Shown in pieces: positions 7,212-54,256 of a stretch of DNA of 64,000 bases. Made by a program: the position numbers and the translations under genes. The stretch is taken from positions 20,053-84,052 of the forward strand of contig JAZBOS010000021.1 in the NCBI GenBank assembly GCA_036351255.1, read 5' to 3'. The notes below the pieces were generated by a model. It was not told the origin of the DNA, did not search any database, and worked only from the letters and a program-made list of their open reading frames with translations. How positions within the stretch are numbered: the first letter of the stretch is position 1; each line of letters starts with the position of its first letter. Source of the stretch: Bacteroides sp. Lineage in GTDB: Bacteria > Bacteroidota > Bacteroidia > Bacteroidales > UBA7960.

Positions 7212-7228
7212 GGCTGCCAAATTTTTAA

Positions 7229-7236
7229 CAAATATA
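7229..7236 (-). promoter_or_regulatory. Bacteroidota-type -7 promoter box (TATATTTG on minus strand) for aroB-aroA
   Basis: The reverse complement of caaatata is TATATTTG, 17 nt upstream of ATG 7211. Confidence 0.45.
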
Positions 7237-7319
7237 TTATAACTGCCAAATCTTTTACAATTTATACATTTATTTTCAAACACTTTCTTATTGTGTTATT
7301 TTTCCGCTTAGGAATTCCT

Positions 7320-7327
7320 TAATTTTG
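7320..7327 (+). promoter_or_regulatory. Bacteroidota-type -7 promoter box (TAATTTTG)
   Basis: TAnnTTTG match 17 nt upstream of ATG 7345. Divergent from the aroB promoter. Confidence 0.45.
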
Positions 7328-7344
7328 CAGCAAATTTTTTTTCT

Positions 7345-8514
7345 ATGTTCGCATTTGATAATACCCGTGTCGCTTTTCACGACAAGAGCAATTGGGAGCT
7401 GAAAAAAGCTTACTGGCTTTTCCGTTTGATTGGGAATCCCTGGCTGGTTAAGATTGGTGCAGGGTTTACCCGTTTTGCTCTTTCAGCCAAACTGCCGATA
7501 AGCTGGGCCCTTAAACCGACAGTGTTCAGCCACTTTTGCGGGGGTGAAACCATTGATTCATGTGATGCCACCATTGAACGACTGGGAAGATCTAAGATAA
7601 AAACCATACTTGATTATTCCGCCGAGGGCAAGGAACGGGATGAGGACTTTGATTATACCCGAGATCAGATTCTGGCCACCATGGACAAGGCACTGACAAA
7701 TCCCTACATTCCTTATGCAGTATTCAAACCTACAGGTGTTGCCCGTTTTGCCTTGTTGGAAAAGGTACAGGCTGGAGAAAGCCTGAACGAAGATGAAAAG
7801 AAGGAGTGGGATCGGGTCAGGGGACGGGTTCTTAAAATTTGCCAGCGTTCCCATGATTCGAAAATCCCCGTAATGGTAGATGCTGAGGAAACCTGGATCC
7901 AAAATATCATTGATGAACTGGTTGAGGAAATGATCTTCCGTTTCAACCGCGAAAAGCCCTTAATATACAATACGCTTCAGATGTACCGGCACGACCGCCT
8001 GGATTACCTGAAAGACCTGAACAGGCGTGCAAGGGAAAAAGGTGTGTTTACAGCAGTGAAGCTGGTGCGTGGGGCATATATGGAAAAGGAAAGAGAACGT
8101 GCTGCTGAAAAAGGCTATCCCTCGCCAATATATTCCGATAAGCAAGGTACAGATAAGGGTTATGATGATGCTGTGGCTTATTGCATTGAAAATGTAAAGG
8201 ATGTTGCCGTGTGTATTGGTACCCATAATGAAATAAGTTGTCAAAAAGGTGCAGAGAAAATGATCAGTTTGGGTGTGCCCAAAAACCATCCGCATATTTC
8301 CTTTTCCCAGCTGTTGGGGATGAGCGACCAAATCAGTTATAATATGGCTGCTGAAGATTTCAATGTGACCAAGTATATACCTTATGGGCCTGTCAAAACC
8401 GTGGTGCCTTATCTCATCAGACGGGCTGAAGAGAATACCTCTGTTGCCGGGCAGACTTCAAGGGAGCTCCTGTTATTGGGCACCGAACTGGAAAGGAGAA
8501 AAAAGAGTCAATAG
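7345..8514 (+). CDS. Proline dehydrogenase family protein
   Basis: 389 aa. The C-terminal block FSQLLGMSDQISYNM...YIPYGPVKTVVPYLIRRAEENTS is typical of monofunctional proline dehydrogenases. Confidence 0.75.
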   Translation: MFAFDNTRVAFHDKSNWELKKAYWLFRLIGNPWLVKIGAGFTRFALSAKLPISWALKPTVFSHFCGGETIDSCDATIERLGRSKIKTILDYSAEGKERDEDFDYTRDQILATMDKALTNPYIPYAVFKPTGVARFALLEKVQAGESLNEDEKKEWDRVRGRVLKICQRSHDSKIPVMVDAEETWIQNIIDELVEEMIFRFNREKPLIYNTLQMYRHDRLDYLKDLNRRAREKGVFTAVKLVRGAYMEKERERAAEKGYPSPIYSDKQGTDKGYDDAVAYCIENVKDVAVCIGTHNEISCQKGAEKMISLGVPKNHPHISFSQLLGMSDQISYNMAAEDFNVTKYIPYGPVKTVVPYLIRRAEENTSVAGQTSRELLLLGTELERRKKSQ

Positions 8515-12802: not shown

Positions 12803-15190
12803 ATGATGATCTCCCGTCGTTTTTTGATTTTATTCAGCCTGTTGTTCATTTTTTTTCAGGGCTTTTCCCAGGTAAGCACCCGCACAAGAAGTGTGCTTGA
12901 AAATCTCCAGAGATATACCCTGGAATATCCACAGCAAAAGGTCTTCCTGCATCTTGATCGCAAGGAATATGTTGCGGGTGAGAACATCTGGTTCAAAGCC
13001 TATTTGGTCCAGGCTGGTTCTCACATCCCTGATTCTTCGAGCACCAGCCTGAATGTTGAACTGTTTAATGTGAACGGTCAGGCTGTTGCCTTGCACCTGG
13101 TGAGGATGCAGGACGGTTTGGGGTATGGGCAAATCTCCCTCCCCGATTCCTTGCCTGAAGGCAATTATAAACTCAGATCCTACACCAATTGGATGCAGAA
13201 CTTCCCGGAGTTATTATTTTTTGAGCAAGATATTTTTGTTCATAATCCAATGGAGCAAAATTTCATCCGGCGTGCAGACATCCGGCGAAACCGCAATTTC
13301 AATGAAGAACTGGAAGAAAAAAAGGAGGAAGTGCAACTTGGTTTGTTTCCTGAAGGGGGACAATTTGTTGCCGGCGTTGAAAACCGGGTAGCTTTCTTTG
13401 CTGCCGATGGGACAGGCTCTCCCTTGCAAGCCACGGGGAAAGTGATGGATGCGGATGGACAAATTTTGGGTTCCTTCAAAACCAATGAATTAGGAATGGG
13501 TTTGTTTGCGCTTAGCCCCCTAAACGGACAAACTTACAAGGTAGAGTTGGAGGTACCTGGCAAAGGCGTAAAAATGTTTTCTTTTCCCGAAGTGGTTCAG
13601 CAGGCTTATGCCCTAAGGGTTGATGCCGATGCTGAAGAGGTCTCGGTTCAAGTCCGGGCAGGATTTGACCCAGCGACCTTCAATTTGCCTGCCGACGTTT
13701 TTATCATTGCACAATCTGGCGGGAAAGCCCATTTTATTGAAGAAGGCAAATTACTTGACGGACAATTCAGCACAACCTTCTCAACCAGTCGCTTGCCCAC
13801 AGGAGTAACCCAGATTACAGCTTTTGATGCAGTGGCTACCCCTGTGGCCGAACGCTTAATTTTTGTGGATCACAACGACCATTTGCAACCTGATCTTGAC
13901 CTGAACAGGGTTCGGGTGGGTAACGAAAATGGCCTCCAGGTTGATTTTAGACTGGATTTTGTTGAAGGTAGCGGGGAATGGGCTCACCTGTCCCTGGCAG
14001 TGGAAGGCTCAGAAAATCCCTTTTATGTGCCTGCCCCCAATATCCTTACCGAGTTATTGCTTAGAAATGACCTATCCATCAACCTTCCCAACCTTCAGGC
14101 ATTATTCCCGGGTCAGGGCAATTCAGCTGAAAAGCTTGACCTGATTATGATGACACACGGATGGCGCCGTTTTCATTGGAAGGATATTCTGAGTGGTGAA
14201 TTTGCCCAACCGCAATACACCAAACCACAGGGACAGGTTCTGTCTGGCCAGTTGACATCTATGAATACCGACCAGATTCCCTCCGCGGTACTCCTTGAGA
14301 TTGCCATTGTGCAGGAAGGCCGTGATGTTTATTCAACGCAAACCGACGAAAAAGGGTTCTTTAAGTTGGAAGGCCTGGATTACAATGGTTATTATACAGC
14401 TGAATTCAGGCTGCCCAATGAAAGTCGCCCCCGGGGCTTCAGGCTAAGGGTGGATGGAACTGAAACGGCTACCCGTACTTTCTCTATGAATTCCTTTACC
14501 CGACCCGTATCGGTACTGCAGCGAGGCGAAAACTGGGAAAGGGTTTCCAATCCCAATGTGTTTGCCGTGGCTTCCAAAGCCAGGGAAATTGCCCAGGAAA
14601 CTCAAAGCATTTATGGAACCCCCGACCAGACTATATACATGGATGACGTTTCTGTGAACTACTCTAATGTGCTTGAAGTCTTCAGGGGAAAGGCAACGGG
14701 AGTCACTTTTGTTGGCAACCAGATCAGAATTAGGGGTGAAGGAAGCATTAATTCAAGCAATGAACCTCTTTTCATGATGGACGGTGTGGTGGTCACCCCT
14801 GAGGTATTGTTGAATTTGAGGCCCACTGAACTAGACCGTATTGAGATCCTCAAAGGCCCCAGTACAGCCATCTTTGGAGCCCGTGGTGCTAATGGCGTCA
14901 TCATTGCCTATTCCAGAAGAGGCGCAACCCAAGGCCCCCAGTTTCAGTACAACCTGCTTGGGTTTGCCACGCCCAGAGAGTTCTTTAATTCACGCATCCA
15001 TCTTGATTACAAAAAAGAAAGGGGTATTACGCACACACTTTTTTGGGAGCCTGGAATCATGCCTGATGAACGAGGTCGTTTCGGAATGGGCTTTCCAATC
15101 AGGGAACAATGGAAACATGCCAGGGTTATCGTGCAGGGCATTCATAGTAGTGGGAAACTGATCTGGTCTGAGGTGAATCTCAATTATTAA
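12803..15190 (+). CDS. Secreted MG2 (alpha-2-macroglobulin-like)/Ig-like repeat protein with C-terminal TonB-dependent-receptor plug domain, no beta-barrel
   Basis: 795 aa with a signal peptide (MMISRRFLILFSLLFIFFQGFSQ). An MG2-like block (KVFLHLDRKEYVAGENIWFKAYLV...GNYKLRSYTNWM) is followed by a plug-like block (GVTFVGNQIRIRGEGSINSSNEPLFMMDGVVV...IEILKGPSTAIFGARGANGVII). Only about 100 aa follow the plug. Confidence 0.6.
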   Translation: MMISRRFLILFSLLFIFFQGFSQVSTRTRSVLENLQRYTLEYPQQKVFLHLDRKEYVAGENIWFKAYLVQAGSHIPDSSSTSLNVELFNVNGQAVALHLVRMQDGLGYGQISLPDSLPEGNYKLRSYTNWMQNFPELLFFEQDIFVHNPMEQNFIRRADIRRNRNFNEELEEKKEEVQLGLFPEGGQFVAGVENRVAFFAADGTGSPLQATGKVMDADGQILGSFKTNELGMGLFALSPLNGQTYKVELEVPGKGVKMFSFPEVVQQAYALRVDADAEEVSVQVRAGFDPATFNLPADVFIIAQSGGKAHFIEEGKLLDGQFSTTFSTSRLPTGVTQITAFDAVATPVAERLIFVDHNDHLQPDLDLNRVRVGNENGLQVDFRLDFVEGSGEWAHLSLAVEGSENPFYVPAPNILTELLLRNDLSINLPNLQALFPGQGNSAEKLDLIMMTHGWRRFHWKDILSGEFAQPQYTKPQGQVLSGQLTSMNTDQIPSAVLLEIAIVQEGRDVYSTQTDEKGFFKLEGLDYNGYYTAEFRLPNESRPRGFRLRVDGTETATRTFSMNSFTRPVSVLQRGENWERVSNPNVFAVASKAREIAQETQSIYGTPDQTIYMDDVSVNYSNVLEVFRGKATGVTFVGNQIRIRGEGSINSSNEPLFMMDGVVVTPEVLLNLRPTELDRIEILKGPSTAIFGARGANGVIIAYSRRGATQGPQFQYNLLGFATPREFFNSRIHLDYKKERGITHTLFWEPGIMPDERGRFGMGFPIREQWKHARVIVQGIHSSGKLIWSEVNLNY

Positions 15191-15422: not shown

Positions 15423-17837
15423 ATGCGATCGTTAATATACTTAATCAACCTTGCCGTTTTAACAGGATTGTTTTTGCCGCAGCAGGCCATGGCTGAAGGG
15501 CCCTTAATCCCTTCTGGTTATGAAGCCTACACCCCATATCAGGTTATCAATGGTTTTTATGAGTCATTTCCTCAGCAGAAGGCTTACATCGACACCGATA
15601 AAACGAACTACCTGGCCGGGGAGGTCGTTTGGTTGAAGGCCTATGTTGTTTCGGCCAAAACCCATGTGCCCGATACTTCAACCACCAATCTTTTCGTTGA
15701 GTTGATCAGTGCCCGCAATGAGGTCGTTGATTTTATGATACTCCGCTTGAATAATGGCTTTTCAAGTGGTTATATCCAATTGCCCGATTCCCTGAAGGGT
15801 GGGAGTTACCAGTTGAAAGCATACACCAATTGGATGAATAATTTTGATAAGGATTTTATTTTTCTCAGGGAGATTTATGTTCATAATCCTGATGAACCCA
15901 ATTATATCACCAGGGCTGAGATCCGTCAGAACACCCGTTTCAACGCTGACCTTGAAGAAAAAAAGGAACACATGCAGTTTGCCTTTTTCCCCGAAGGAGG
16001 CAACCTGGTGGCCGGACTTGAAAACCGCCTGGCTTTTAAAGCCGCAGATGCCCTGGGGGCAGGGCAGGAGGCCAAAGGTACCCTGCTTGACGATCAGGGC
16101 AGGAAGGTGCTTGAGTTTGTCACAGACCACGATGGCATGGGGGCTTTCACTTTTACCCCCAATGCAGCTCTATCATATACGGCCCAGGTTGAGTTTGGTA
16201 ATGGGCAAACGCTTTTCTCACCCTTACCAGCAGCATTAACCCAGGGCTACTTGTTGCGTGTCGATTCTGACCCTGGGAATATTCAGATTCAGGTGAATGC
16301 AAATTTTGATCCAAATAGTCTGAATATGTCCTCCGAGCTTCTGCTACTTGGACATACCCGTGGGCAAGTTTGCTATATGGGAAAGGCGGATCCCAAAAAC
16401 GGAAGCTTCCAGACGGTAGTTCCCGCAGAACGTTTTCCTGAAGGCATTGCTCACTTTACCCTCTTTGACCCCAACGATACCCCCGTGGCCGAAAGGCTTG
16501 TATTCGTCAGGAGATCCCTGGATTCGGAAGATACTCCTGAAGTCGATTACGAGCTCAGTTCGGGTGACAGTCTTGTCGTTGTAGATTTGCTGTTTGACAC
16601 TGCAAGCGACCTTTCCCCATCCGAGGCCAGCTATTCGTTATCGGTAGTTGAAAAGTTTGGATCCCTTCCTGAAAATGGGCAGAATATTGCTACCTATCTG
16701 TTGCTTTCAAGTGACTTTGGTTCCACCCTTTCCGATCCCTGGTATTATTTTGCAGAAGATACCCCCGAAAGGAGGCAGGATCTTGATTTGCTGATGCTGA
16801 CACACGGCTGGAGAAGGTTTGTTTGGAAAGACCTCCTGGATGGTAAAAAACCCGAGATACTTTTTAAAGAATTGCATGGCCTTACCCTGGCTGGACAGGT
16901 TAAACCAGTTTCCTCCGCCAGAGAAACAGGTGAACTCAACGTGGAAGTTTCAGTGGGATACACCGACGACCGTAAAACCCTCAGAACGAAAACGGACAAC
17001 CAGGGATTTTTTGCCTTTACCGGTCTGAATTATGAGGGAGACTTTTCGGCGCTTCTCTCTGTGGAACGAGACCGTAGGGGCCGTATTTACAAAGTAAATC
17101 TTTTCGGGAGTACCCGTGAAACCACATCCTATGTGAAAGGGCCCGGCACCCGGCCTTACGAAACCCTTGAAAGAGGCCCTGATTGGGAACGCCGTGATCG
17201 CCCTGGATTCTTCAGCCGTCTTTTCAACCGCCCAAGCACCGGTGAAGAAATGAGCAGTCCCAGTATGTTTGGGGCGCCCGATCAGGTGATTTACATGGAA
17301 GACCTCAACGTAAATTATACCAATGTTTTCGATATCATTCGTGACCGGGTGACAGGCCTGAGGGTTATCAATGGGGAAATCACCCTGAGGGGCCCTTCCA
17401 GCATCAGGCTGAGTAATGAACCTATATTCTTTGTTGATGAGGTCCAGGTCAACGCCAATAGCTTCCTTTCCATTTCTGTTTCTGAAATTGAAAGAATCGA
17501 AGTGCTTCGTGGACCCAGCACGGCTATACTCGGCAGCCGGGGAGCCAATGGCGCCCTTTTAATCTACACCCGCAGGGCTGAACATCAGCACCAATTCTCC
17601 TATGAATACCAACTTAGGGGATATCACGTTACCCGCGATTTCTTTATTTCCAGGATTTCTACCAGCAAATACTTCGATCAGGAAGTCCCCCGTACGATTT
17701 TATGGGTGCCCAACCTGGTCCCTGATTCTTACGGACGTGTCAGGGTAAGGATACCTTATTCTGAGGATCCTGATAAATTGCATTTTAGGCTTGAGGGGGT
17801 GGATCGTCTTGGGCAAATCAATTTTCTGCAATTCTGA
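15423..17837 (+). CDS. Paralog of 12803-15190: MG2-like repeat protein with C-terminal plug domain, no barrel
   Basis: 804 aa with a signal peptide and the same block order (QKAYIDTDKTNYLAGEVVWLKAYVV..., HGWRRFVWKDLL, GLRVINGEITLRGPSSIRLSNEPIFFVDEVQV...IEVLRGPSTAILGSRGANGALLI). Collinear with the upstream paralog. By eye, roughly half of the positions in the aligned blocks are identical. Confidence 0.6.
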   Translation: MRSLIYLINLAVLTGLFLPQQAMAEGPLIPSGYEAYTPYQVINGFYESFPQQKAYIDTDKTNYLAGEVVWLKAYVVSAKTHVPDTSTTNLFVELISARNEVVDFMILRLNNGFSSGYIQLPDSLKGGSYQLKAYTNWMNNFDKDFIFLREIYVHNPDEPNYITRAEIRQNTRFNADLEEKKEHMQFAFFPEGGNLVAGLENRLAFKAADALGAGQEAKGTLLDDQGRKVLEFVTDHDGMGAFTFTPNAALSYTAQVEFGNGQTLFSPLPAALTQGYLLRVDSDPGNIQIQVNANFDPNSLNMSSELLLLGHTRGQVCYMGKADPKNGSFQTVVPAERFPEGIAHFTLFDPNDTPVAERLVFVRRSLDSEDTPEVDYELSSGDSLVVVDLLFDTASDLSPSEASYSLSVVEKFGSLPENGQNIATYLLLSSDFGSTLSDPWYYFAEDTPERRQDLDLLMLTHGWRRFVWKDLLDGKKPEILFKELHGLTLAGQVKPVSSARETGELNVEVSVGYTDDRKTLRTKTDNQGFFAFTGLNYEGDFSALLSVERDRRGRIYKVNLFGSTRETTSYVKGPGTRPYETLERGPDWERRDRPGFFSRLFNRPSTGEEMSSPSMFGAPDQVIYMEDLNVNYTNVFDIIRDRVTGLRVINGEITLRGPSSIRLSNEPIFFVDEVQVNANSFLSISVSEIERIEVLRGPSTAILGSRGANGALLIYTRRAEHQHQFSYEYQLRGYHVTRDFFISRISTSKYFDQEVPRTILWVPNLVPDSYGRVRVRIPYSEDPDKLHFRLEGVDRLGQINFLQF

Positions 17838-43385: not shown

Positions 43386-44141
43386 TCATAAATAAAGTTT
43401 CTTTATACCATTGATCTTTTTTTGATCGAAATTTGTGGAGGTTTCGATCAAATCAAGGAGTTCTTTTACCTGTGAAAGGTTTTTTCTCTTCTTCTCGTTG
43501 CGTAAAAGTCTTGCCGAACGGGTAAAGAATTCATGTGACTCTACAAAATCCCGCTGCCTTTCATACCAGGTCCTGAAAGGGATCTTCTGGGTGCTGTTCT
43601 CGCTCCATTCGCGGTGCAGCCGGAGGGCGGTGATGAAAAAGTCATCGCGTCCGATATAATCCAGGTCTGCATCGCAGAGTATTTTCTCCAGCAGGGTGCG
43701 GGGTTGCTGTGGCATGGTCGTTGAAATGATCAACTGTCTGACCACCGCCAACTGTTTGTCGGAATATCCAAAACCTGGCAGGGTTTCTTCTGCAAAATCG
43801 CAGGCCAGGGGTTCATTGTTTTCATACGACCAAAGAAAGCCTGTGTCGTGATAAAGGGCAGCGGTAAGTAACAGCAACAGGTTGTCATCCCCGACCTTTT
43901 CCATGATGGCCAGGGTTTCTACTGAGCGGCAAACGTCGAGGGTGTGCTGGGCGTTATGGTAAAAAAGGGAGGGGCTTAATTCCCGTGAAAGTTTCTGGAC
44001 AATAAATTCTTTTGCACGGGTAAATTCCATAAAAACATCACTATGGTTAGAGGGCATGGATTGAAAACCATACCTTTCCTGTAAAGGCAAAAGACTTACA
44101 GGTGGATTTTTCCCGTTTTTTCGATCAAAGTAGCCTAACAT
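43386..44141 (-). CDS. HD domain metal-dependent phosphohydrolase
   Basis: 251 aa with the H...HD signature (YHNAQHTLDV, LTAALYHDTGF). Confidence 0.7.
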   Translation of the reverse strand: MLGYFDRKNGKNPPVSLLPLQERYGFQSMPSNHSDVFMEFTRAKEFIVQKLSRELSPSLFYHNAQHTLDVCRSVETLAIMEKVGDDNLLLLLTAALYHDTGFLWSYENNEPLACDFAEETLPGFGYSDKQLAVVRQLIISTTMPQQPRTLLEKILCDADLDYIGRDDFFITALRLHREWSENSTQKIPFRTWYERQRDFVESHEFFTRSARLLRNEKKRKNLSQVKELLDLIETSTNFDQKKINGIKKLYL

Positions 44142-44196: not shown

Positions 44197-44877
44197 TTAT
44201 CGTATATATAATTTATTTTTTCCGGCAGAAAATTTATAAAACAGGCTATAATGCAGCATCACAGAAGTATTTCCATCATTTTTCCCAAATCCGCTGATAT
44301 AATACGGGTCCATGTCCGAACCCGGCTTGCGTGCCAGCATCAGCCTGATGCGTAAATCCCATCCCAGGTATAAGTTCCAGAATAATTTGGTTTTCAATCC
44401 CCCGCCAATTTCTGCCCAGTGGGCCGAATACCTGGCTGCCTCGAAGGCCCCTTCCACAGAGCCCCAGTAAGGATCGTTGATGATAATCCTGGGGGCTTCG
44501 TGGCTTAGCGTACCAAAACCATAACGGAAGGAGAGGAAGATCTCTTCTCCTTTCATGGATGGATTTTTCTGAAGCAGGTTGTAATTCACTCCCGCCCGGA
44601 AAAATAGTCCCCGGGCATCGTAGTTATGGGTTTCACGTGCTATAGCTACGTCCAAGTTGCCAGCTTCAATGGCTGCAAACCAGTTTGGCTGCCATTCAAA
44701 GCTCCCCGAGATACCATGCACCATCACCTCAGGCTCAAAGTAATTTCTTGCCAATCCCGAAAGGTCATACCCTAAGCTAACCGTTGGCCTGAAAACCAGC
44801 GTGTCCATGTCTTGCGCCCTGGCTCCAAGACTAAAGGTCAGCGTCAGGATAAAGCAGTATTTTGATATGTTCTTCAA
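44197..44877 (-). CDS. Putative small outer-membrane beta-barrel protein (uncharacterised; possibly DUF6048-like)
   Basis: The ORF-track frame is open to TTG 44988. I prefer TTG 44877, which gives MKNISKYCFILTLTFSLGARAQ|D, a clean signal peptide. The mature part shows an alternating hydrophobic beta-strand pattern. The start overlaps the upstream lipoprotein gene end by 47 nt. Start choice and family name are uncertain. Confidence 0.45.
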   Translation of the reverse strand: MKNISKYCFILTLTFSLGARAQDMDTLVFRPTVSLGYDLSGLARNYFEPEVMVHGISGSFEWQPNWFAAIEAGNLDVAIARETHNYDARGLFFRAGVNYNLLQKNPSMKGEEIFLSFRYGFGTLSHEAPRIIINDPYWGSVEGAFEAARYSAHWAEIGGGLKTKLFWNLYLGWDLRIRLMLARKPGSDMDPYYISGFGKNDGNTSVMLHYSLFYKFSAGKNKLYIR

Positions 44878-45340
44878 GGCTGTGGTTAAGCAGGTTTTGG
44901 GATAGTTGAACGGTGCTGATCCGGTAATTGGTATGTGATACTTCAAGAATATCATAGAACATTGTAAATCCGCATTCGGCAGAGACAAAATTCAGGGAAT
45001 GGGTATATTCCACCCAAAGGGTGTCCGTGATGTTCTCAGGGAAAATGAAAACAAAGCCAGTGTTAGTCGATGCAGGGTTCAGTGGGACTTCAATGCTACG
45101 GACACTTTTGGTGTTATCGTAAATCAGGCTGTCGGCCCGGCCTGCACCATAAACGGTGAGGCTGTCGACGGTGTAGGCCGTTGGCGCCCCATCTATAACA
45201 GTGGGCAGGTAAAAGCCCAGCCGAAGCGGGTTGGAGGTGGCTTCCTCGCATAACTCGTCGCTTTGGCAAGAGCCCAGGAACAACATGCTGAGCAAACATG
45301 CCACCACCATCATTGCACCCGATCCTGAAATGACTTTCAT
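44831..45340 (-). CDS. Small lipoprotein (uncharacterised; possibly DUF6452-like)
   Basis: 169 aa from ATG 45340: MKVISGSGAMMVVACLLSMLFLGSCQSDE, with the lipobox L-G-S-C. It lies 70 nt downstream of the TonB-dependent receptor stop on the same strand. Confidence 0.6.
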   Translation of the reverse strand: MKVISGSGAMMVVACLLSMLFLGSCQSDELCEEATSNPLRLGFYLPTVIDGAPTAYTVDSLTVYGAGRADSLIYDNTKSVRSIEVPLNPASTNTGFVFIFPENITDTLWVEYTHSLNFVSAECGFTMFYDILEVSHTNYRISTVQLSQNLLNHSLEEHIKILLYPDADL

Positions 45341-45410
45341 ATCCGGCAAAAATAAGAAAAAATACCAAGGAGGGTGGTGGATAGTTTCTCTTACCCTTAG
45401 AAATGTAAAA

Positions 45411-47345
45411 TTAGCTTTCCGTTTTTTGAGCAAAAGAAAATGTAATACCTCCTCTGAAGTACCTCAGGGGCATGGGGCGGTTGGCAATGATCTGGTAAGG
45501 GGTGTTCCAGAGGTTCTCCACGGTCAGGTTCAGCCCCAACTGGTGATTGAAAACGCTATGTTTCCAGTACAAGCCAATATCCCCGGTGTGGTAAGAAGGC
45601 AACGACTGGCTGTTGTCGCTGTTTGTGTATCGCTTTCCAGTGATCTCGTGGTTGTAGAAGATGCCCAGGCTCCTGATGGAAAACCTCAGGTTGATGCCTC
45701 CGCGGTGATGTGGCACATAGATAAGTTGTTTGCCCATCGAAGGGTCGTCTTCACCAACTCCTTTTGAATTTTGCGCGATGGTGTGGTCATATCTTAGGCT
45801 CCATTCAATGGTGCCCTGTCCCAATTGCCAATGGCCTCCCCATCGGCTTTCCAGGCCGTAGCTTTTCACCTCCAGCCTGTTTTCGGGCATCCATATCCAC
45901 GAGTCGCCCTGAGGCAGCCAGATGATCCAGTTGCGTATGCTCCTGTGATAACCGCCGATGCTCAGATGTTCAAAGATATTGAAGGATTGCTTGTTGATTG
46001 CCCGGGCCACATTGCGTTCAACACGCATTTCGCCGCCCCAGCCCTGTTCGGGTTTCAGGTCGGGATTGCCCCCCGGGTTCCAGTAAAGGTCATTCAGTGA
46101 GGGCAGCAGATAGCTGTATCCGGCATTGCCCTTTACTACCCAGTGACGGATAGGTTTCCAGGCAAGGCCCAGAGAAGGTGAAAAGGGAATTTCCCGGTCT
46201 CTTACAATCTCCTGGCGCCCGCTCAGCACCACTTCCAACTGGTCTTCAAAGGCCTCCCACTTGGTGGAGGCAAACAGCGCCAGGCTGTTCCGGTATTTTT
46301 CCTCTTCATACTCTTCCGCCTTGGCGGTGGTTTTTTGAACATTGAAACCCCAATTCACGATCAAGCCCTTAAGGGGGTTCCAGCGAGCCTCCGCTTCCCC
46401 TGTTAACTGATTGGAATAACTGTTTGCGAGGTATTCGAAGTTGTCGCTGAAATCGAGGTAATCTTCAAAATGGGCTCCCCTGACAAATATCAGCAACCTG
46501 GGCAGACTGAGCTGGTATTGCGCGTTGAGCCGCAGGCTTTGATCCTGTTGCCTCGACTCATAATACGCCATATCAAGTGAGGGTGGAATGTCGCGGTCGC
46601 TTTCCTGCCACCACCAACGCAGATCAAACCGGTGGGCTTTCCCCAGCTGAAACCAGGTGTCGTGCATGATGCCCCTTTGGGTGATGCCTGCTAATTCCTG
46701 GGTCTCGATAGGGTTTTCCGGGAGGGTGGTGTTTTCGAAACGGTACTGGTTTCCGGCATTCCGGTTGAAGGCCCGCAAGGTCGTCGAGAAACGGGGCCTC
46801 CCATAGCTTATCTTCACTTGCTGGCTCAGGTCGCCAATGCTTCCGGTATAAAAGCCCAGGCTGCCGGAAAGGCCCTGTTTTCTGCTGGGATGGTTGTTGA
46901 TAAAAATGGCCCCTCCCATGGCTCCGCTGCCCCACAGGGCACTTCCTCCGCCATACTGTACCTGGACCTCATCGGCAAACAGGGCCGGTAATAAAGCAAG
47001 ATCAGTCTGTCCATTCATCGGGCTATGCAGGTTGAAGCCGTTCCACATCAGGGCAGTCTGGCCCGGTTGTCCACCCCGCAAGGCGGTGCTGGCAAGAATC
47101 CCCGGACCATAACTTTTGATAAACAATCCTGTTTGCCTGCCAAGTAAATATCCCAAATCCTGATCAGGTTGCCGCTGAAGCGCGAGGCTATCGAGCGTTT
47201 GGGTGTTGTGGCCAGTGCCGAAATCCGTTTGACGTCTGGCGGTAATGGAAACTTCCTGCAAGGTGATCAGGGTGTCGGGTTCTTCTGCATAAGTGGCGGC
47301 AATGAAAAGCCCGCTAAACAAAAAAAACATTAATCCTTTTTGCAT
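45411..47345 (-). CDS. TonB-dependent receptor, BtuB-like (plug + 22-strand-size barrel)
   Basis: 644 aa with a signal peptide and a plug block (ITARRQTDFG...LGYLLGRQTGLFIKSYGPG...STALRGGQPGQTALMWNGFNL). Its length matches small BtuB-type receptors. It sits directly downstream of a cobalamin riboswitch. Confidence 0.85.
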   Translation of the reverse strand: MQKGLMFFLFSGLFIAATYAEEPDTLITLQEVSITARRQTDFGTGHNTQTLDSLALQRQPDQDLGYLLGRQTGLFIKSYGPGILASTALRGGQPGQTALMWNGFNLHSPMNGQTDLALLPALFADEVQVQYGGGSALWGSGAMGGAIFINNHPSRKQGLSGSLGFYTGSIGDLSQQVKISYGRPRFSTTLRAFNRNAGNQYRFENTTLPENPIETQELAGITQRGIMHDTWFQLGKAHRFDLRWWWQESDRDIPPSLDMAYYESRQQDQSLRLNAQYQLSLPRLLIFVRGAHFEDYLDFSDNFEYLANSYSNQLTGEAEARWNPLKGLIVNWGFNVQKTTAKAEEYEEEKYRNSLALFASTKWEAFEDQLEVVLSGRQEIVRDREIPFSPSLGLAWKPIRHWVVKGNAGYSYLLPSLNDLYWNPGGNPDLKPEQGWGGEMRVERNVARAINKQSFNIFEHLSIGGYHRSIRNWIIWLPQGDSWIWMPENRLEVKSYGLESRWGGHWQLGQGTIEWSLRYDHTIAQNSKGVGEDDPSMGKQLIYVPHHRGGINLRFSIRSLGIFYNHEITGKRYTNSDNSQSLPSYHTGDIGLYWKHSVFNHQLGLNLTVENLWNTPYQIIANRPMPLRYFRGGITFSFAQKTES

Positions 47346-47479
47346 AATGCATGAATTTCGTCCCGGAACAATCCGGGAATGTTAAACAAATGATATAATT
47401 TCTATCATCTGTAACAAACGGTGAAACCAGTTGGAGAAAAAAAGAGGACTCAATTTTTCTTCGCTTTTTTCCCGAAAGC

Positions 47480-47668
47480 TACAAATTCACTGGTTATGGC
47501 AGGTCTTCTGACTTACTCCTTGTTTACCGCCTTCCCATCCCGTATAATAGGGGACAGTGGCATAGATTGGTAACAATTGGAAAGAGCTTACAGCAGCGGG
47601 AACTGTCCAGGATTTTCACCTGATTCCCTTTTCATCCGGAGCACCCGATTGGGTTCCGGAACCGTAAC
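47480..47668 (-). promoter_or_regulatory. Cobalamin (B12) riboswitch
   Basis: The minus-strand transcript contains the conserved cores AAAAGGGAATCAGGTGAAAATCCTGG, ACAGTTCCCGCTGCTGTAAGC, GCCACTGTCCC...GGGATGGGAAGGCGG and the B12 box AGTCAGAAGACCTGCC (47513-47498). These match the RF00174 consensus by eye. The boundaries are approximate. Confidence 0.9.
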
Positions 47669-47673
47669 CGGGG

Positions 47674-47681
47674 CAAAGATA
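47674..47681 (-). promoter_or_regulatory. Bacteroidota-type -7 promoter box (TATCTTTG on minus strand) driving the riboswitch
   Basis: The reverse complement of caaagata is TATCTTTG, immediately upstream of the first riboswitch helix. Confidence 0.5.
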
Positions 47682-48686: not shown

Positions 48687-50120
48687 TCATTCAACAAGGA
48701 CCTTTTGGTGAAAGTTCCCCTGTTCGGTGGTTAATATCAATAGATAAAGGCCTGGTATCATGTTATTGGTACTGATACGGGTTTCACCGGGAACCAGGGT
48801 TTCTGTGAAGACCCTTGCCCCATGCAACGTGAATAATTCCAACTTGTACGTGCCTTCGGGTGCTTCAAGAATAAACCAGTCCCGGGCGGGGTTGGGGTAA
48901 ACAGTTATTTTTGCGATAGCCTGGGGATCGCTTACCGAGACATTATTTTCGTCCCAGATTCTGCTGGCAAACTCTGGATGGTCAATGAAAGGATTCCGGT
49001 TCCCCTGGATCTCGTAAATGGCCTGGTTGCGGAGGATTTCCTTTTGGCTGACCGGATCCCGGGTATGCCATTCCAGAAACATCTCTTCCGCCCAGGCTTT
49101 CAGGCCAGGGAATTCATTGCTGGTGAACACTTCACCGGCATTGCCATTGCCAATCCATTCGCTGAGGTCGTCCTCATAGCGGGTGGCCATATAAAAATAT
49201 CCCCGGGCGATGTCACCCTTGTAAGCATCGATAGGTTCGAAGGCAATCCCTGAATAACCCGATAAGATGTTGGGTCCCAGTTTACTGCCATTCTGCGATG
49301 TCCAGCTGGGATTGTTGACCTCCCCGTAAGGGTAATTGCCTCTTTTGCCATTCACCATCTTATCGGAGGGAAAAATATGAAACAGCTCGGTGTACATTGG
49401 CATGGCGCTCTCAAACCACGATTGTGGAACCGAGTGCTCGCGGTTGTAAAATTCGCCCTCAACATTCCCCCCTGAGCCGGAATCCTGATCATCGCCAAAG
49501 GTGAAGGTGTAGGGAGGTTCCTGGCAGGGGATGTCGGAATACATATCCCAGACCTTTCCTGAATAAGTGGCGTCAGTTTCCAGGAAATGGGTCCACAGGC
49601 TTGAATAGGTTTGGGGCTGGTGGTCGTTGATGATGTCAAACAGCTGGGTCTTAAGCTGACTGCCCTGTCCGGTGGCTCCATCATAATATCCGCTGGGAAT
49701 GGTACTTTCAATCCCCAAGCCTGAAACACCAAGGATTTCGGGGCCCGAATCACCGGATTGATGGGTTATTGTCCCCTGCTTTTCACCGGTTGATTCAGGG
49801 AAAAACCTTACATAGATCCGCCTGGAGGCAATCGTTCCGTTGTTTTGGGTCAGGTTCAGGCTGCTTCCGAAATTTTCACTGCAATCCAAAGAAATCCTGA
49901 AGGGCCCATCTGCACTAATGGAAAGATCTTCGCTCAACTCACTGGCCTGAACGTAATAAAACTGCACATCGGAGAAATGCCCCGGAAAAACTCCCCGAAA
50001 ATCTGGCAGACTGGACACGGAGAGGCTAATGCTGCCCGCGGAGATGGCTTGAACATTTGTCATAATCAGCGCAAAAACCAGGAGCAAGGGGGTGAACTTG
50101 CGAGTAGTGAAAATTGACAT
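48687..50120 (-). CDS. Secreted endonuclease I family nuclease with T9SS C-terminal sorting domain
   Basis: Endonuclease-I blocks EHSVPQSWF, FHIFPSDKMVNGKRGNYPYGEV and NRNPFIDHPEFA. The C-terminal ITVYPNPARDWFILE...GLYLLILTTEQGNFHQKVLVE is a Por/T9SS CTD. The ORF-track start is TTG 50141. I prefer ATG 50120 (MSIFTTRKFTPLLLVFALIM...) because a -7 box overlaps 50141. Confidence 0.8.
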   Translation of the reverse strand: MSIFTTRKFTPLLLVFALIMTNVQAISAGSISLSVSSLPDFRGVFPGHFSDVQFYYVQASELSEDLSISADGPFRISLDCSENFGSSLNLTQNNGTIASRRIYVRFFPESTGEKQGTITHQSGDSGPEILGVSGLGIESTIPSGYYDGATGQGSQLKTQLFDIINDHQPQTYSSLWTHFLETDATYSGKVWDMYSDIPCQEPPYTFTFGDDQDSGSGGNVEGEFYNREHSVPQSWFESAMPMYTELFHIFPSDKMVNGKRGNYPYGEVNNPSWTSQNGSKLGPNILSGYSGIAFEPIDAYKGDIARGYFYMATRYEDDLSEWIGNGNAGEVFTSNEFPGLKAWAEEMFLEWHTRDPVSQKEILRNQAIYEIQGNRNPFIDHPEFASRIWDENNVSVSDPQAIAKITVYPNPARDWFILEAPEGTYKLELFTLHGARVFTETLVPGETRISTNNMIPGLYLLILTTEQGNFHQKVLVE

Positions 50121-50138
50121 TCGTTTCGTATTAATTGG

Positions 50139-50146
50139 CAAATGTA
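50139..50146 (-). promoter_or_regulatory. Bacteroidota-type -7 promoter box (TACATTTG on minus strand) for nuclease gene
   Basis: The reverse complement of caaatgta is TACATTTG followed by C, 18 nt upstream of ATG 50120. Confidence 0.45.
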
Positions 50147-50507: not shown

Positions 50508-53500
50508 TTATTGCCTGATCATTTTCCTGACGTAAACCTGTCCGGTTTTGTCAATCAATTGAATGATGTACAAGCCTCTCTCAAGGGATGAAGTGCCAAT
50601 TTGGAGGTCGCCATCCACAGCCTCATATTCCCTTACGATCTGCCCACTGCTGTTCACAAGACGAACAATGTCAATTTGTTCGAGGTTTAACAGACGGATG
50701 TGGTCGCTGAAAGGGTTGGGGTAAATGCTCACAGCGGGCATTTCTGTCAACGTGACACTGGTGGAAAGTTCAAAATCATCCAGATCTCTTGCCGTAACCT
50801 GGATGGTTGTCAGGTATTGGCTCACCAAAACGCTAAGGTTTTGTGGCTGCACAGGTACCGCAGTTCCAATATAGTCAGCATCGAAGAAGGAGGTGCGGAA
50901 TACGCCATTGCCATTTGCCGAGGTCAGTTCGTAATTCTGGCTGGTGGCAAAGTTGCCGGAAGCGTTGGCGAAACTGACATTTTCTATCTTCACCAGTTTG
51001 GCCTGGTCGTCTGATGTCAGGCTGGCCAGGGTGCGGACTTCCGGGACCACCGGGTTGCCTGTTGAGGTAGCTGCGCCGGGGTCTTCGGTTGGGACGAACT
51101 GAAGCATGCCGTTGTTGATGGTCAGGGTTCCTGTAATGCCTGTGATCCCATCACCAATGTCATAATTTGTGCTAATAACTCCATCGAAGTCGTCTATCAC
51201 AATAGCAGCGCTATTGTCCTGGATGTACTTCTGGTTACGGAAATTTTGCTGGTATGTTAGTATGGCTTCTCCAGTAAGCTGGTAAGGCATTCCTGTTTCC
51301 CCTCCACGCAAAGCCAGCAAGTTGGACACCTGGGTAGCTTCGTTGCTGATGACCTCAACACTTACGTTATCGAGTTGAAGGTGCCCCATGGCTTCGTCAG
51401 AATTGCGCAAAGAGAAAATAAATTCCGCCACATCTGATGAGTTTTCGGCAAGGATTACCTGTGAGTATTCTGCCCAGGTGTCACTGTTTACTATAATGTA
51501 TTCATTATAAAAGTATCCATAGGCATCTTCGCGTTCATCAAAAAGACCAGTGCGGATGTCACCCTTGCCCTTGAGCCAGAAAGTGACCCTGTAATTCTGT
51601 CCGTTCTCAACGCTGGTGGCCTGCGAAGTGAACCGTTTGTGGTTCCCTTCGGCATTGATAAGCTGAACCGCTGAACTTCCTGACTGCGGGTTCTCGGTGT
51701 ATTGCATGACGGCTGCAGCAACCAGGTTGGTCTTGGCTCCAAACCAACAGTCGGGCTTGCCATCTGTCCAGTTTTCGAAATCACCGTTACAGATAACTTC
51801 AATGACAGGTTCGGTCCCTATGGTAAAACTCCACTCGCCTTCGGCAATTCCCGGCAAGGTGTTGCCTCCAAGATCGGCAAAGGCACCTTCATCCACCAGG
51901 ATGTAATAAGCGGTTTCGAAGGCCAGGTCATTGGAGGGATTGATATGGATTTGGTTGTCTTCAATGTTTACCTGTGAAGAGGTGGAAGAAATGGTCTCCA
52001 CGATGGCATCATCACTGCTGGTATAGATGATGATGTTCTTCCCTGAAACAGGCCAGATATTTTCGCTTACGGTAATGATGAAGCCCTGGTCGGCTGGAAC
52101 CTCCACGGCATTATTTTCAGGGGTCAGGGCCAGAACCTCCGGATCGAGGATGTCGATAAAGGTGACGTTGGCACTTTCGGCGTAGAAGTTGAGGTCGCTG
52201 GCATCGCTGAGCCTGAAGTAATAGCTGCCGTGGGCACCGTTGGGGAGGTTCTCGGTAAAGGTGCCGTTGGCGGCAGTGATGTCAGTGTATTCGGCCACGG
52301 GTGTTGAGAACCCTGCCTGGTAGACATACAGGTTAAGGGTCTGGATGTTTTCGGAAGTCCAGCTGACGGTCACTGGTTCTCCCGTTTCGTATTCTTCACC
52401 GCCGATGGGGGCAGTGAATGCCAGTTCCCGAATCTCGTCGGTGAGGGTCACCTTGTAGTATTTGGTGGTTGTTTCATCTTCAGCCACGACAGTCACCACG
52501 ACGACATCTCCGGAGAATAAGGCCTGGGTAGGAAGGTCGGCCTCGTCAACGGGGTCGCCGTTCAGGGACACGGCGAAGGTAGCTGCAGGATGGCTGGTTG
52601 TGACTACAATACCTTCAAAATCAGTGAAGTCAGAAACGAAAATGGTAGCACCCTCTTCAGAAGGATCATTCACCTCAACGCCCGTCAAGTCGAGTGCATC
52701 CAACCCCCCAAGGGTTAAAGCTGAGAGGCTGGCATCGGTGCTGATGAGATCGAAGTTAAAGTCGCTTAAAAAACGCGGGGTGATAAAATCTCCCTCAGCC
52801 CGTGAATTGGGCAGGCCGGTCAGATGGAAAGGATTGGTGGGGATGGGCGTACCAATATAATCCACGTCGTAAAAAGTGGTCCTGAGGGTGGCGGTGGTGA
52901 TGCCATCGGTAATGGAGTATGTCTGTCCGTTTTCAAAATTTCCGCCGGGGCTTACGAACGACACATTCTGGATGGTGACCAGCCTTGACTCGTAAGTTTC
53001 GAAGTTGTTTACGAATTCAGCCAGCGAAATCTCGAGGGGTTCAATGACATTGTTGGTTGAAGTGGCAGGACCCGGGTCGGACAGAGGCGTAAACTGGAAC
53101 ATGTTTCCGTAAACGGTAAGGGTGCCTTCAATTCCTGTAATTCCGTCGTATAAGCTATAAGCCGAGGTGATTATTCCGCTGTTGTCATCAATCAGGATTC
53201 CCCCGGTTTCGTCTTCAATGTATTTTTGATTTCTGAAATCCTGCTGGTAAGTGAGGGTTGCCTCACCTGAAAGGATATAGGGGGTTGAACCTGTGGGTAA
53301 TTGCTTAAGTTCGGCAATGGTTGAAACCGTCGTGGGGAAAGCATAAACCCCGGTGGCAACATAACTTGGATCCAGGCCGGCTTTATATCCCCTGGCCTTG
53401 ATGGTCGTTGTACTGGAGATGTTTACCGGTCCTGTGTAGAGGGTGCTGGCCTCTGTTGGGTCATTGCCATCGAGGGTGTAATAAATGCTAGCACCTTCTG

Positions 53501-54197
53501 TGGTGGTACTTATTGTAACATCAATAGGGGAAGTATACATGCCAGGAGCAGGATCGAAGGAAGGCATTGCCACGCTGGGAGTGGTAGAGCATACGTGAAC
53601 AGGGGAAGCAGTATTGCTTGGGTTGGGTGTTTCCACCACAAAGTCTGCATTATTGTTGTTGGTATCAACACAGCCATCATCGAGACGGATGGCTGCAGTG
53701 GTATTCGAAATTGGGGCAGTTGCACCGCTGCCTTCAAAACAATTGGCAGTACCATATCCTACCAAATCAATGACTTCTGAGCCTGTGGGGCACGAGCCTG
53801 AAAGTGCAGTTGTGTTGTTAACCAGGGCCACTTTGCCATTGCTGGCAGCCATGGCCATTGTTCCAGTTGCATCGGGCGTGGGAAGATCTACCGTTCCACC
53901 AGAACCCTGGGCCTGTTGAACCAGGTAGTACTGACCGGGTTGAAGCGTAAAATCAGTAAGTTGGGTCACTTGCCAGCTTGTGCCAGTGGATGAGGCGTAT
54001 TGCACAGACCATCCTGCCAGATTAACAGGTTCTGAGCTTTGGTTGAAAATCTCTATAAAGTCGTTTTTCAGGGTAGCCCCTGAGTTTCCACCACCGCCAT
54101 ACACCTGGCTGATCACAACTTGCGACCAGGCAGAAAGGGAAAAGGAAAAAAGTAGTAAGGCGAAGGCCAAGGTCTTAAGAAAAGAAATTTTCTTCAT
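50508..54197 (-). CDS. Large secreted multidomain protein: lamin-tail domain (LTD), chitobiase/FN3-like domain, duplicated ~175-190-aa module, Ig-like/CBM-like regions, T9SS C-terminal sorting domain
   Basis: LTD-like N-terminus VISQVYGGGGNSGATLKNDFIEIFNQSSEPVNLAGWSVQY; GASIYYTLDGNDPTEASTLYTGPV block; C-terminal VSIYPNPFSDHIRLLN...GLYIIQLIDKTGQVYVRKMIRQ (T9SS CTD). No catalytic motif recognised. The ORF-track start is TTG 54251. I prefer ATG 54197 (MKKISFLKTLAFALLLFSFSLSAWSQ) because a -7 box overlaps 54251. Confidence 0.75.
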   Translation of the reverse strand: MKKISFLKTLAFALLLFSFSLSAWSQVVISQVYGGGGNSGATLKNDFIEIFNQSSEPVNLAGWSVQYASSTGTSWQVTQLTDFTLQPGQYYLVQQAQGSGGTVDLPTPDATGTMAMAASNGKVALVNNTTALSGSCPTGSEVIDLVGYGTANCFEGSGATAPISNTTAAIRLDDGCVDTNNNNADFVVETPNPSNTASPVHVCSTTPSVAMPSFDPAPGMYTSPIDVTISTTTEGASIYYTLDGNDPTEASTLYTGPVNISSTTTIKARGYKAGLDPSYVATGVYAFPTTVSTIAELKQLPTGSTPYILSGEATLTYQQDFRNQKYIEDETGGILIDDNSGIITSAYSLYDGITGIEGTLTVYGNMFQFTPLSDPGPATSTNNVIEPLEISLAEFVNNFETYESRLVTIQNVSFVSPGGNFENGQTYSITDGITTATLRTTFYDVDYIGTPIPTNPFHLTGLPNSRAEGDFITPRFLSDFNFDLISTDASLSALTLGGLDALDLTGVEVNDPSEEGATIFVSDFTDFEGIVVTTSHPAATFAVSLNGDPVDEADLPTQALFSGDVVVVTVVAEDETTTKYYKVTLTDEIRELAFTAPIGGEEYETGEPVTVSWTSENIQTLNLYVYQAGFSTPVAEYTDITAANGTFTENLPNGAHGSYYFRLSDASDLNFYAESANVTFIDILDPEVLALTPENNAVEVPADQGFIITVSENIWPVSGKNIIIYTSSDDAIVETISSTSSQVNIEDNQIHINPSNDLAFETAYYILVDEGAFADLGGNTLPGIAEGEWSFTIGTEPVIEVICNGDFENWTDGKPDCWFGAKTNLVAAAVMQYTENPQSGSSAVQLINAEGNHKRFTSQATSVENGQNYRVTFWLKGKGDIRTGLFDEREDAYGYFYNEYIIVNSDTWAEYSQVILAENSSDVAEFIFSLRNSDEAMGHLQLDNVSVEVISNEATQVSNLLALRGGETGMPYQLTGEAILTYQQNFRNQKYIQDNSAAIVIDDFDGVISTNYDIGDGITGITGTLTINNGMLQFVPTEDPGAATSTGNPVVPEVRTLASLTSDDQAKLVKIENVSFANASGNFATSQNYELTSANGNGVFRTSFFDADYIGTAVPVQPQNLSVLVSQYLTTIQVTARDLDDFELSTSVTLTEMPAVSIYPNPFSDHIRLLNLEQIDIVRLVNSSGQIVREYEAVDGDLQIGTSSLERGLYIIQLIDKTGQVYVRKMIRQ

Positions 54198-54248
54198 CAC
54201 AATAGGATTATGTTTAAAAAATGCCTGAAAAGATTCAATAGTAGCAGG

Positions 54249-54256
54249 CAAAGTTA
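54249..54256 (-). promoter_or_regulatory. Bacteroidota-type -7 promoter box (TAACTTTG on minus strand) for LTD protein gene
   Basis: The reverse complement of caaagtta is TAACTTTG followed by C, 51 nt upstream of ATG 54197. Confidence 0.45.

Follow-up and report, generated by a model that had tools for sequence, protein, structure and literature searches.

A cobalamin riboswitch–btuB unit and a DUF6452–DUF6048 gene pair placed head to tail in a Bacteroidales genome: two probably separate outer-membrane modules

Based on profile searches, structure predictions and comparison of related loci, a two-module arrangement is proposed for a stretch of DNA of 64,000 nucleotides (nt) from Bacteroides sp. 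(Bacteroidales, UBA7960; assembly GCA_036351255.1, contig JAZBOS010000021.1, positions 20,053 to 84,052), hereafter the window. Its minus strand carries a cobalamin (vitamin B12) riboswitch, the gene of a BtuB-type TonB-dependent receptor (TBDR) and, directly downstream, two small genes encoding a DUF6452 lipoprotein and a DUF6048 outer-membrane β-barrel. These genes most likely represent two functionally separate modules standing head to tail, namely a riboswitch–btuB unit and an independent outer-membrane pair, and a probability of roughly 0.68 is assigned to this explanation. The DUF6452–DUF6048 pair is a tightly coupled two-gene unit across Bacteroidota and is not normally linked to B12. 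Its adjacency to btuB is a local historical accident, because loci with the same flanks but without the B12 module exist, the family is far larger than the clade in which the linkage occurs, and the linkage is confined to that single clade. The main lesson is a corrected case of guilt by association, in which same-strand adjacency to a riboswitch-controlled transporter gene mimicked an accessory operon. The riboswitch–btuB unit and the two catalogued Pfam families were already known, and the unusual feature of the window is a btuB gene without btuG.

The DUF6452–DUF6048 pair across Bacteroidota

An exhaustive profile search returned 1,235 clusters (50% identity) of DUF6048 proteins, 822 of them at E ≤ 1e-10, and the family spans Marinilabiliales, Cytophagales and Chitinophagaceae. 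A broad-family sample was collected by scanning metagenomes with a degenerate DNA pattern for PYxIPG[YF]G[KR]G, a sample that covers only motif-bearing members. DUF6048 was present in 56 of its 60 loci, and among the 49 loci for which upstream DNA was available, 48 encode DUF6452 directly ahead of DUF6048. Overlap between the two open reading frames (ORFs), mostly of 29–53 nt, was seen in 62 of 64 loci overall. The genes upstream of the pair in the broad sample are mixed housekeeping genes, including those for aldehyde dehydrogenase, GT2, UvrA, MauE/DoxX, thymidylate kinase, FAD synthetase, ATP synthase, sulfatase and SpoIIE, among others, and the downstream neighbours (LOG family, MntP, MFS, TIM and others) are equally mixed. 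Outside the clade of the window, Pfam scans of long or truncated upstream ORFs found a TBDR in none of 30 cases, and no RF00174 match was obtained in the 33 broad loci with at least 1 kb of upstream sequence. The lone receptor neighbour in the broad scan belongs to a member of the window's clade (L075). A TBDR profile built from BtuB homologs was rejected as a general TBDR detector, since a SusC-like positive control was barely detected with it (E 1.9).

One locus, L036 (2843–3505, minus strand), is the sole broad-sample case with approximately 1 kb of upstream DNA and no detectable DUF6452; a 233-amino-acid (aa) ORF on the same strand occupies its place and may encode a divergent or replaced partner.

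A full-text search of a literature library found no paper mentioning DUF6452 or DUF6048. With more than 1,200 clusters, strict pairing and translational coupling, the two families are a reasonable target for studies of Bacteroidota envelope biology, and DUF6452 is a lipoprotein family without a solved structural relative.

Linkage to btuB in one Bacteroidales clade

Close relatives of the pair were gathered by scanning species-representative genomes with a DUF6048 alignment, which gave 12 loci, all from Bacteroidales metagenome-assembled genomes, and more were added by exact-protein look-ups. A neighbor-joining tree of DUF6048 groups every btuB-linked locus into one clade, so that the association between btuB and the pair probably goes back to about one evolutionary event. 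Two loci in this tree lack the B12 module: L016 is basal, and L019 is nested among loci carrying btuB–btuG. Neither has a riboswitch, btuB or btuG at the locus, and both share the flanks of L017, in which the order is methyltransferase, peptide, radical-SAM, riboswitch–btuB–btuG, pair, HD, Usp and LigA; thus, a methyltransferase gene, a 34–37-aa ORF and a radical-SAM gene lie upstream and (HD)–Usp–LigA downstream in all three. In the more distant L018, the pair is present with no receptor nearby and no RF00174 match, and the gene and Pfam list of the P0093 locus likewise contains the pair and no nearby receptor.

The first-pass annotation of the window, made from the sequence alone, had regarded the two small proteins as B12-specific accessory components that may hand over corrinoids. 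This role is not supported by the distribution of the pair, given the absence of upstream TBDR genes and RF00174 elements from the broad sample and the restriction of the linkage to one clade. In the broad sample, orthologs of the pair do not preferentially follow a B12 riboswitch or TBDR gene, and they occur in other genomes without either, which the same annotation had named as a finding that would speak against its proposal.

The two proteins of the pair

The lipoprotein matches PF20050 (DUF6452) with 87.8 bits against a gathering threshold of 27.1, and the barrel protein matches PF19515 (DUF6048) with 115 bits against a threshold of 27. These were the only Pfam matches of the two small proteins, and no known B12-binding domain was found in them. 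Alignments of 15 and then 72 homologs identified the lipobox Cys, the invariant C31 and C123, and also D106 and G124 as conserved residues of DUF6452; C31 and C123 probably form a disulfide. The lipobox and a second Cys 4–8 residues later are kept family-wide. The mature N-terminus in the window reads C-Q-S-D-E, the clade consensus is C-Q-x-D-E, and this feature is weaker or absent in many members of the broad family. Bacteroidota surface lipoproteins carry an export signal of the form K-(D/E)2 or Q-A-(D/E)2 after the lipobox Cys (PMC5080379).

An AlphaFold2 model of DUF6452 (mean predicted local distance difference test (pLDDT) score 88.3) consists of a β-sandwich behind the signal peptide. 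A Foldseek search of this model against the PDB gave nothing significant (best E 0.058, template modelling (TM) score about 0.25), with no Btu protein among the matches, and the DUF6452 profile found nothing below E 0.26 among PDB sequences. No likeness of fold or sequence to BtuG, BtuH, BtuJ, BtuK or other solved B12 binders was detected in these PDB searches. The possibility that DUF6452 is a homolog of BtuG, BtuH, BtuJ, BtuK or BtuL was considered and rejected from the Foldseek search, the PDB profile search and comparison with a review of the Btu system.

DUF6048 possesses a signal peptide and an all-β fold resembling solved small outer-membrane proteins. Its AlphaFold2 model (pLDDT 80.3) contains about ten strands and matches OmpA, NspA, OprF-N, Ail and OmpX in Foldseek at E values of 7e-7 to 6e-4 with a probability of 1.0, and one DUF6048 homolog also matches PF13505 (OMP_b-brl). 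The homologs begin with MKNISKY at a position that aligns to the TTG at 44877, and this TTG is therefore the start of DUF6048, which gives a protein of 226 aa.

The riboswitch–btuB unit

The features of the locus are listed in Table 1. The aptamer matches RF00174 with 118 bits (gathering score 31.5, E 5.7e-29) over model positions 1–189 without truncation, and its 3′ end lies 135 nt from the btuB ATG. Orthologous aptamers scoring 102–122 bits were found in nine related loci, each ahead of a btuB receptor gene (L001, L003–L006, L009, L012, L013 and L017), and TAnnTTTG is located in the same place as the -7 box of the window at eight of ten related riboswitch loci. Judged from its sequence, the element is a genuine riboswitch, and it is predicted to control the BtuB-type receptor gene directly downstream. 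A search of the riboswitch leader for a canonical intrinsic terminator was negative. The single-sequence fold of the leader has a z-score of -3.6, and RNAalifold analysis with seven related loci revealed compensatory changes in two of the three hairpins, the AU-rich upstream one and the start-proximal one. These bacteria do not use Shine–Dalgarno sequences. Leaders with the conserved hairpins are orthologous in L001, L003–L006 and L013, and those of L012 and L017 are much shorter (about 45–50 nt).

Table 1. Positions of the riboswitch, promoter boxes and genes in the window
Feature	Position	Strand	Remarks
-7 promoter box at the riboswitch, Bacteroidota type	47674–47681	-	TATCTTTG (extended TAnnTTTGCC); riboswitch 5′ edge; read from sequence
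Cobalamin riboswitch aptamer, RF00174	47481–47681	-	cmscan; B12 box included
B12 box	47498–47513	-	AGTCAGAAGACCTGCC; inside aptamer
Expression platform/leader	47346–47480	-	three conserved hairpins; single-sequence fold and RNAalifold
Start-proximal hairpin	47361–47378	-	TCCCGGATTGTTCCGGGA; 15 nt before ATG; seen in minimum-free-energy fold
btuB, TonB-dependent cobalamin receptor, 644 aa	45411–47345	-	signal peptide, TonB box DTLITL, plug, barrel
Putative internal -7 promoter box	45347–45354	-	TATTTTTG, extended TATTTTTGCC; ends 6 nt before DUF6452 ATG; embedded in TTTTTCTTAnnTTTGC
DUF6452 lipoprotein, 169 aa	44831–45340	-	starts 70 nt after btuB; lipobox FLGS-C25
DUF6048 small outer-membrane β-barrel, 226 aa	44197–44877	-	TTG start; 47-nt overlap with DUF6452 stop
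HD-domain gene	43386–44141	-	55 nt after DUF6048; Pfam

The receptor contains the Plug (PF07715, 51.4 bits) and TonB_dep_Rec_b-barrel (PF00593, 110.5 bits) domains. A search of PDB sequences gave just four matches at E ≤ 1e-5, each of them a BtuB chain from Bacteroides (8P98_A at 7.7e-49, 8P97_A, 8BMX_C and 8BLW_A). Its top NCBIfam model is TonB-B12, yet the score is far under the equivalog cutoff, and the cutoffs of the BtuB models TIGR01779 (60.7 bits versus 599.7) and NF007926 (34.5 versus 836) were not reached. Because its close PDB relatives are all Bacteroides BtuB proteins and its best NCBIfam model is TonB-B12, the receptor is assigned by homology to the Bacteroidota-type BtuB proteins.

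The physical layout described in the first-pass annotation holds. The cobalamin-riboswitch leader with all its cores is covered by the full-length RF00174 match, the -7 and B12 boxes are both present, and the 644-aa plug-plus-barrel receptor, the 169-aa lipoprotein 70 nt behind it (lipobox given as LGSC) and the HD gene 55 nt after the barrel gene were all recovered. The hairpin that had been placed about 14 nt before the ATG is found at nearly that distance and is kept in the seven related loci. For the barrel-like protein with a signal peptide, the barrel, the TTG start that had been called uncertain and the 47-nt overlap stand, and the length of about 227 aa was corrected by one residue. 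The family names DUF6452 and DUF6048, which had been suggested tentatively, are the right ones.

No homolog of DUF5074/BtuG was found in the btuB operon of the window or anywhere within its 64 kb, and the same holds for the operons of L001–L006 and L013 and the surrounding sequence examined. In the sister loci L009, L011, L012 and L017, a DUF5074 protein is encoded between btuB and DUF6452, and it is identified as BtuG by its matches to 3DSM (2.8e-48), the crystal structure of BtuG2 (PMC6143338), and to 8P97_B (6e-51), the BtuG chain of a BtuB–BtuG complex. In gut Bacteroidetes, btuG occurs in 106 of 109 btuB operons and two more have a divergent copy, and B. thetaiotaomicron requires btuG for uptake at low B12 (PMC6143338). 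The btuG-less btuB operons in this set of environmental Bacteroidales call into question how general the BtuB–BtuG core is outside gut species.

A promoter box in front of the pair

The internal -7 box in front of DUF6452 probably represents the pair's own promoter and would yield a leaderless or near-leaderless mRNA. Of 16 clade loci, 14 have a TAnnTTTG box 12–14 nt ahead of the DUF6452 start codon; the sequence around the box has diverged, but the box itself persists behind btuB, behind btuG (with a 30-nt gap) and behind the radical-SAM gene of L019. The extended form TAnnTTTGCC occurs at seven sites in the window, including the one before DUF6452, and the same form heads the riboswitch. Of 60 TAnnTTTG boxes in the window, 23 fall in the approximately 10% of the DNA that is non-coding, and several are situated 7–22 nt from start codons; a promoter so close to a start is plausible on account of this enrichment and spacing. 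The argument for an own promoter is limited to the clade of the window, and a sigma-70 promoter scan is uninformative for Bacteroidota.

Proposed arrangement and alternative explanations

In the proposed arrangement, the first module would be an ordinary Bacteroidota B12-uptake unit consisting of a promoter, the cobalamin riboswitch and btuB, in which a high level of intracellular cobamide may lead to aptamer binding and a fall in btuB expression. The second module would be the phylum-wide, translationally coupled outer-membrane pair, composed of DUF6048 as a small barrel of the OmpA/OmpX class and DUF6452 as a disulfide-stapled β-sandwich lipoprotein, the two probably being made together from overlapping frames. 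The barrel may hold, anchor or present the lipoprotein, and the two proteins probably form a complex, which would most likely be a general envelope component and not one specific for nutrients or corrinoids. In the clade of the window, the acidic CQxDE N-terminus of DUF6452 resembles the Bacteroidota surface-export signal, and the lipoprotein may be exposed at the cell surface. The pair is probably transcribed from its own -7 promoter right at the start codon. A single historical placement probably brought a riboswitch–btuB–btuG cassette upstream of a pre-existing pair–(HD)–Usp–LigA block in one lineage of Bacteroidales, and btuG is missing from the subclade of the window. B12-repressible read-through from btuB probably adds to the promoter-driven expression of the pair, and this would amount to regulatory hitch-hiking and would not be a sign of corrinoid function.

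Several observations weigh against two separate modules. Within the clade, the pair stands on the same strand next to btuB or btuB–btuG in every adequately long locus except L016 and L019, and this adjacency holds down to 40% DUF6048 identity and survives rearrangements further upstream. The tree from which a single event is deduced is a simple neighbor-joining tree. The pair's promoter is a footprint in the sequence only, and the exact TAnnTTTG is found upstream of DUF6452 in only 8 of 35 broad-family loci. In addition, no terminator-like hairpin was found in the 70-nt gap between btuB and DUF6452. Finally, the btuB of the window is atypical in lacking btuG; since btuG is nearly universal and required in gut species yet absent here, something else may serve BtuB in the window.

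An alternative explanation is that the ancestral pair was recruited to the B12 operon in this lineage, where the surface lipoprotein would capture corrinoids or hand them over to BtuB and, in the subclade of the window, partly replace the missing BtuG. The pair follows riboswitch–btuB(–btuG) in all 10 untruncated linked loci, on the same strand and, in the window, after a 70-nt gap in which no terminator was found, the loci without a detected btuG (the window, L001–L006 and L013) contrast with the near-universal presence and critical role of this gene in gut Bacteroidetes (PMC6143338), and the CQSDE N-terminus of DUF6452 resembles the export signal Q-A-(D/E)2 (PMC5080379). Nevertheless, such recruitment is considered quite improbable. 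The pair predates the linkage and has a far wider distribution, and its architecture and invariant residues do not differ between loci with and without btuB; L019, nested in the linked clade, keeps the pair without the btuB–btuG module; and the pair has its own conserved promoter box. A 15-kDa β-sandwich with its own barrel resembles no solved B12 binder and would be unable to cap a 22-strand barrel in the way that BtuG does, and a btuG gene may lie at another place in the same genome. The stronger form of this idea, in which the pair of environmental Bacteroidales with BtuG-less btuB operons has become a structurally unprecedented device for corrinoid capture or hand-over to BtuB, appears very doubtful.

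Bacteroides B12 riboswitches cut operon mRNA about 70-fold (PMC6143338); together with the lack of a terminator hairpin after btuB, this indicates that some B12-repressible read-through from btuB into the pair probably occurs. The co-transcription of the small genes that had been proposed as probable is upheld in part: the genes share a strand, no terminator separates them and read-through is possible, but DUF6452 is preceded by its own -7 box. Complete capture by the upstream promoter without any B12 function, in which the box before DUF6452 would be, for example, a translation-initiation context and the pair would be expressed only as the distal part of a B12-repressed btuB transcript, is unlikely. 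It would agree with the missing terminator, with the repression cited above and with very short gaps of 30 nt after btuG (L009, L011 and L012) and 70–84 nt after btuB. However, the box fits the full TAnnTTTG consensus and has the same extended TAnnTTTGCC form as the box heading the riboswitch, this genome has many boxes at 7–22 nt from a start codon, and the box is also present in L019, which has no upstream riboswitch promoter and in which the pair must be transcribed from somewhere. Two functionally separate modules, with probable regulatory hitch-hiking of the second, remain the preferred explanation.

Other features of the window and related loci

Beyond the HD-domain gene, a Usp gene and the gene of the NAD-dependent DNA ligase LigA follow. 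Upstream of btuB, two genes on the minus strand encode substrates of type IX secretion, namely an Endonuclease I protein with Por_Secre_tail (48687–50141) and a 1,247-aa protein with LTD, CHB_HEX_C, Big_5, CBM4_9, DUF5689 and Por_Secre_tail (50508–54251), the latter being syntenic in L013–L015; these two substrates may form a secreted nuclease system. Two adjacent plus-strand ORFs of about 800 aa (12803–15190 and 15423–17837) combine an N-terminal MG2 domain with a C-terminal TonB-receptor Plug (residues about 620–710), with an additional sub-threshold CarboxypepD_reg match in the first. No receptor β-barrel was detectable in either, which is unusual for a plug-bearing protein.

In the B12 operon of L012, a plus-strand gene (6329–7366) encodes a DUF4465 protein that matches the solved DUF4465 chain 9HMU at 3.6e-18 and carries a type IX C-terminal sorting domain rather than being a lipoprotein like BtuH and BtuJ. 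Between this gene and btuG lies a 343-aa ORF (7391–8422, plus strand) without a Pfam or PDB sequence match, whose product may be a further Btu accessory protein. A triad of a class I methyltransferase, the 34–37-aa ORF and a radical-SAM protein of about 435 aa (Fer4_12) occupies 7649–9824 in L016, 4444–6558 in L017 and 7724–9872 in L019, upstream of the pair (L016 and L019) or of the btuB module (L017). It looks like a small peptide-modification cluster of the type that makes ribosomally synthesized and post-translationally modified peptides.

Comparison with known systems

The Bacteroides Btu system comprises BtuB, BtuG, BtuH, BtuJ, BtuK and BtuL, of which BtuG is a β-propeller, BtuK has both PKD and propeller domains, and BtuL is a large lipoprotein with repetitive receptor-L domains (PMC13616437). 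Binding of B12 is reported for the DUF4465 family (PMC13398666), and BtuH and BtuJ are taken, from the abstracts on DUF4465, to carry domains of this family. No described Btu protein is a small β-sandwich lipoprotein or a small barrel. The window resembles the Bacteroides B12 uptake loci, such as loci 1–3 of B. thetaiotaomicron, in that RF00174 lies directly upstream of a gene for a homolog of BtuB (8P98_A), and the sister loci L009, L011, L012 and L017 add BtuG (DUF5074), with a DUF4465 protein as well in L012. In contrast, the operon of the window possesses no btuG, btuH, btuJ or btuFCD, and its DUF6452 and DUF6048 proteins fall outside the described Btu accessory proteins (PMC13616437).

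With the DUF6452/DUF6048 pair as catalogued in Pfam, the window shares the lipobox followed by a second Cys, the gene order DUF6452–DUF6048 and the overlapping genes, whereas a position downstream of riboswitch–btuB is found only in its own Bacteroidales clade. The DUF6048 model is similar to small outer-membrane barrels of 8–10 strands (the OmpA N-domain, OmpX/Ail, NspA, OprF-N and OmpW; Foldseek probability 1.0), although TM-scores are just 0.4–0.5 and identities 8–13%, no periplasmic OmpA-C domain is present, and DUF6048, unlike these barrels, comes with a lipoprotein gene of its own in nearly every locus. As in the systems in which a lipoprotein forms a lid on a TBDR (BtuB–BtuG and SusC–SusD), the gene for a lipoprotein with an export-like signal directly follows the TBDR gene in the window. 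On the other hand, DUF6452 is a 15-kDa β-sandwich and not a propeller or TPR lid, and it is coupled to its own small barrel and not to a TBDR, with no TBDR association across the family.

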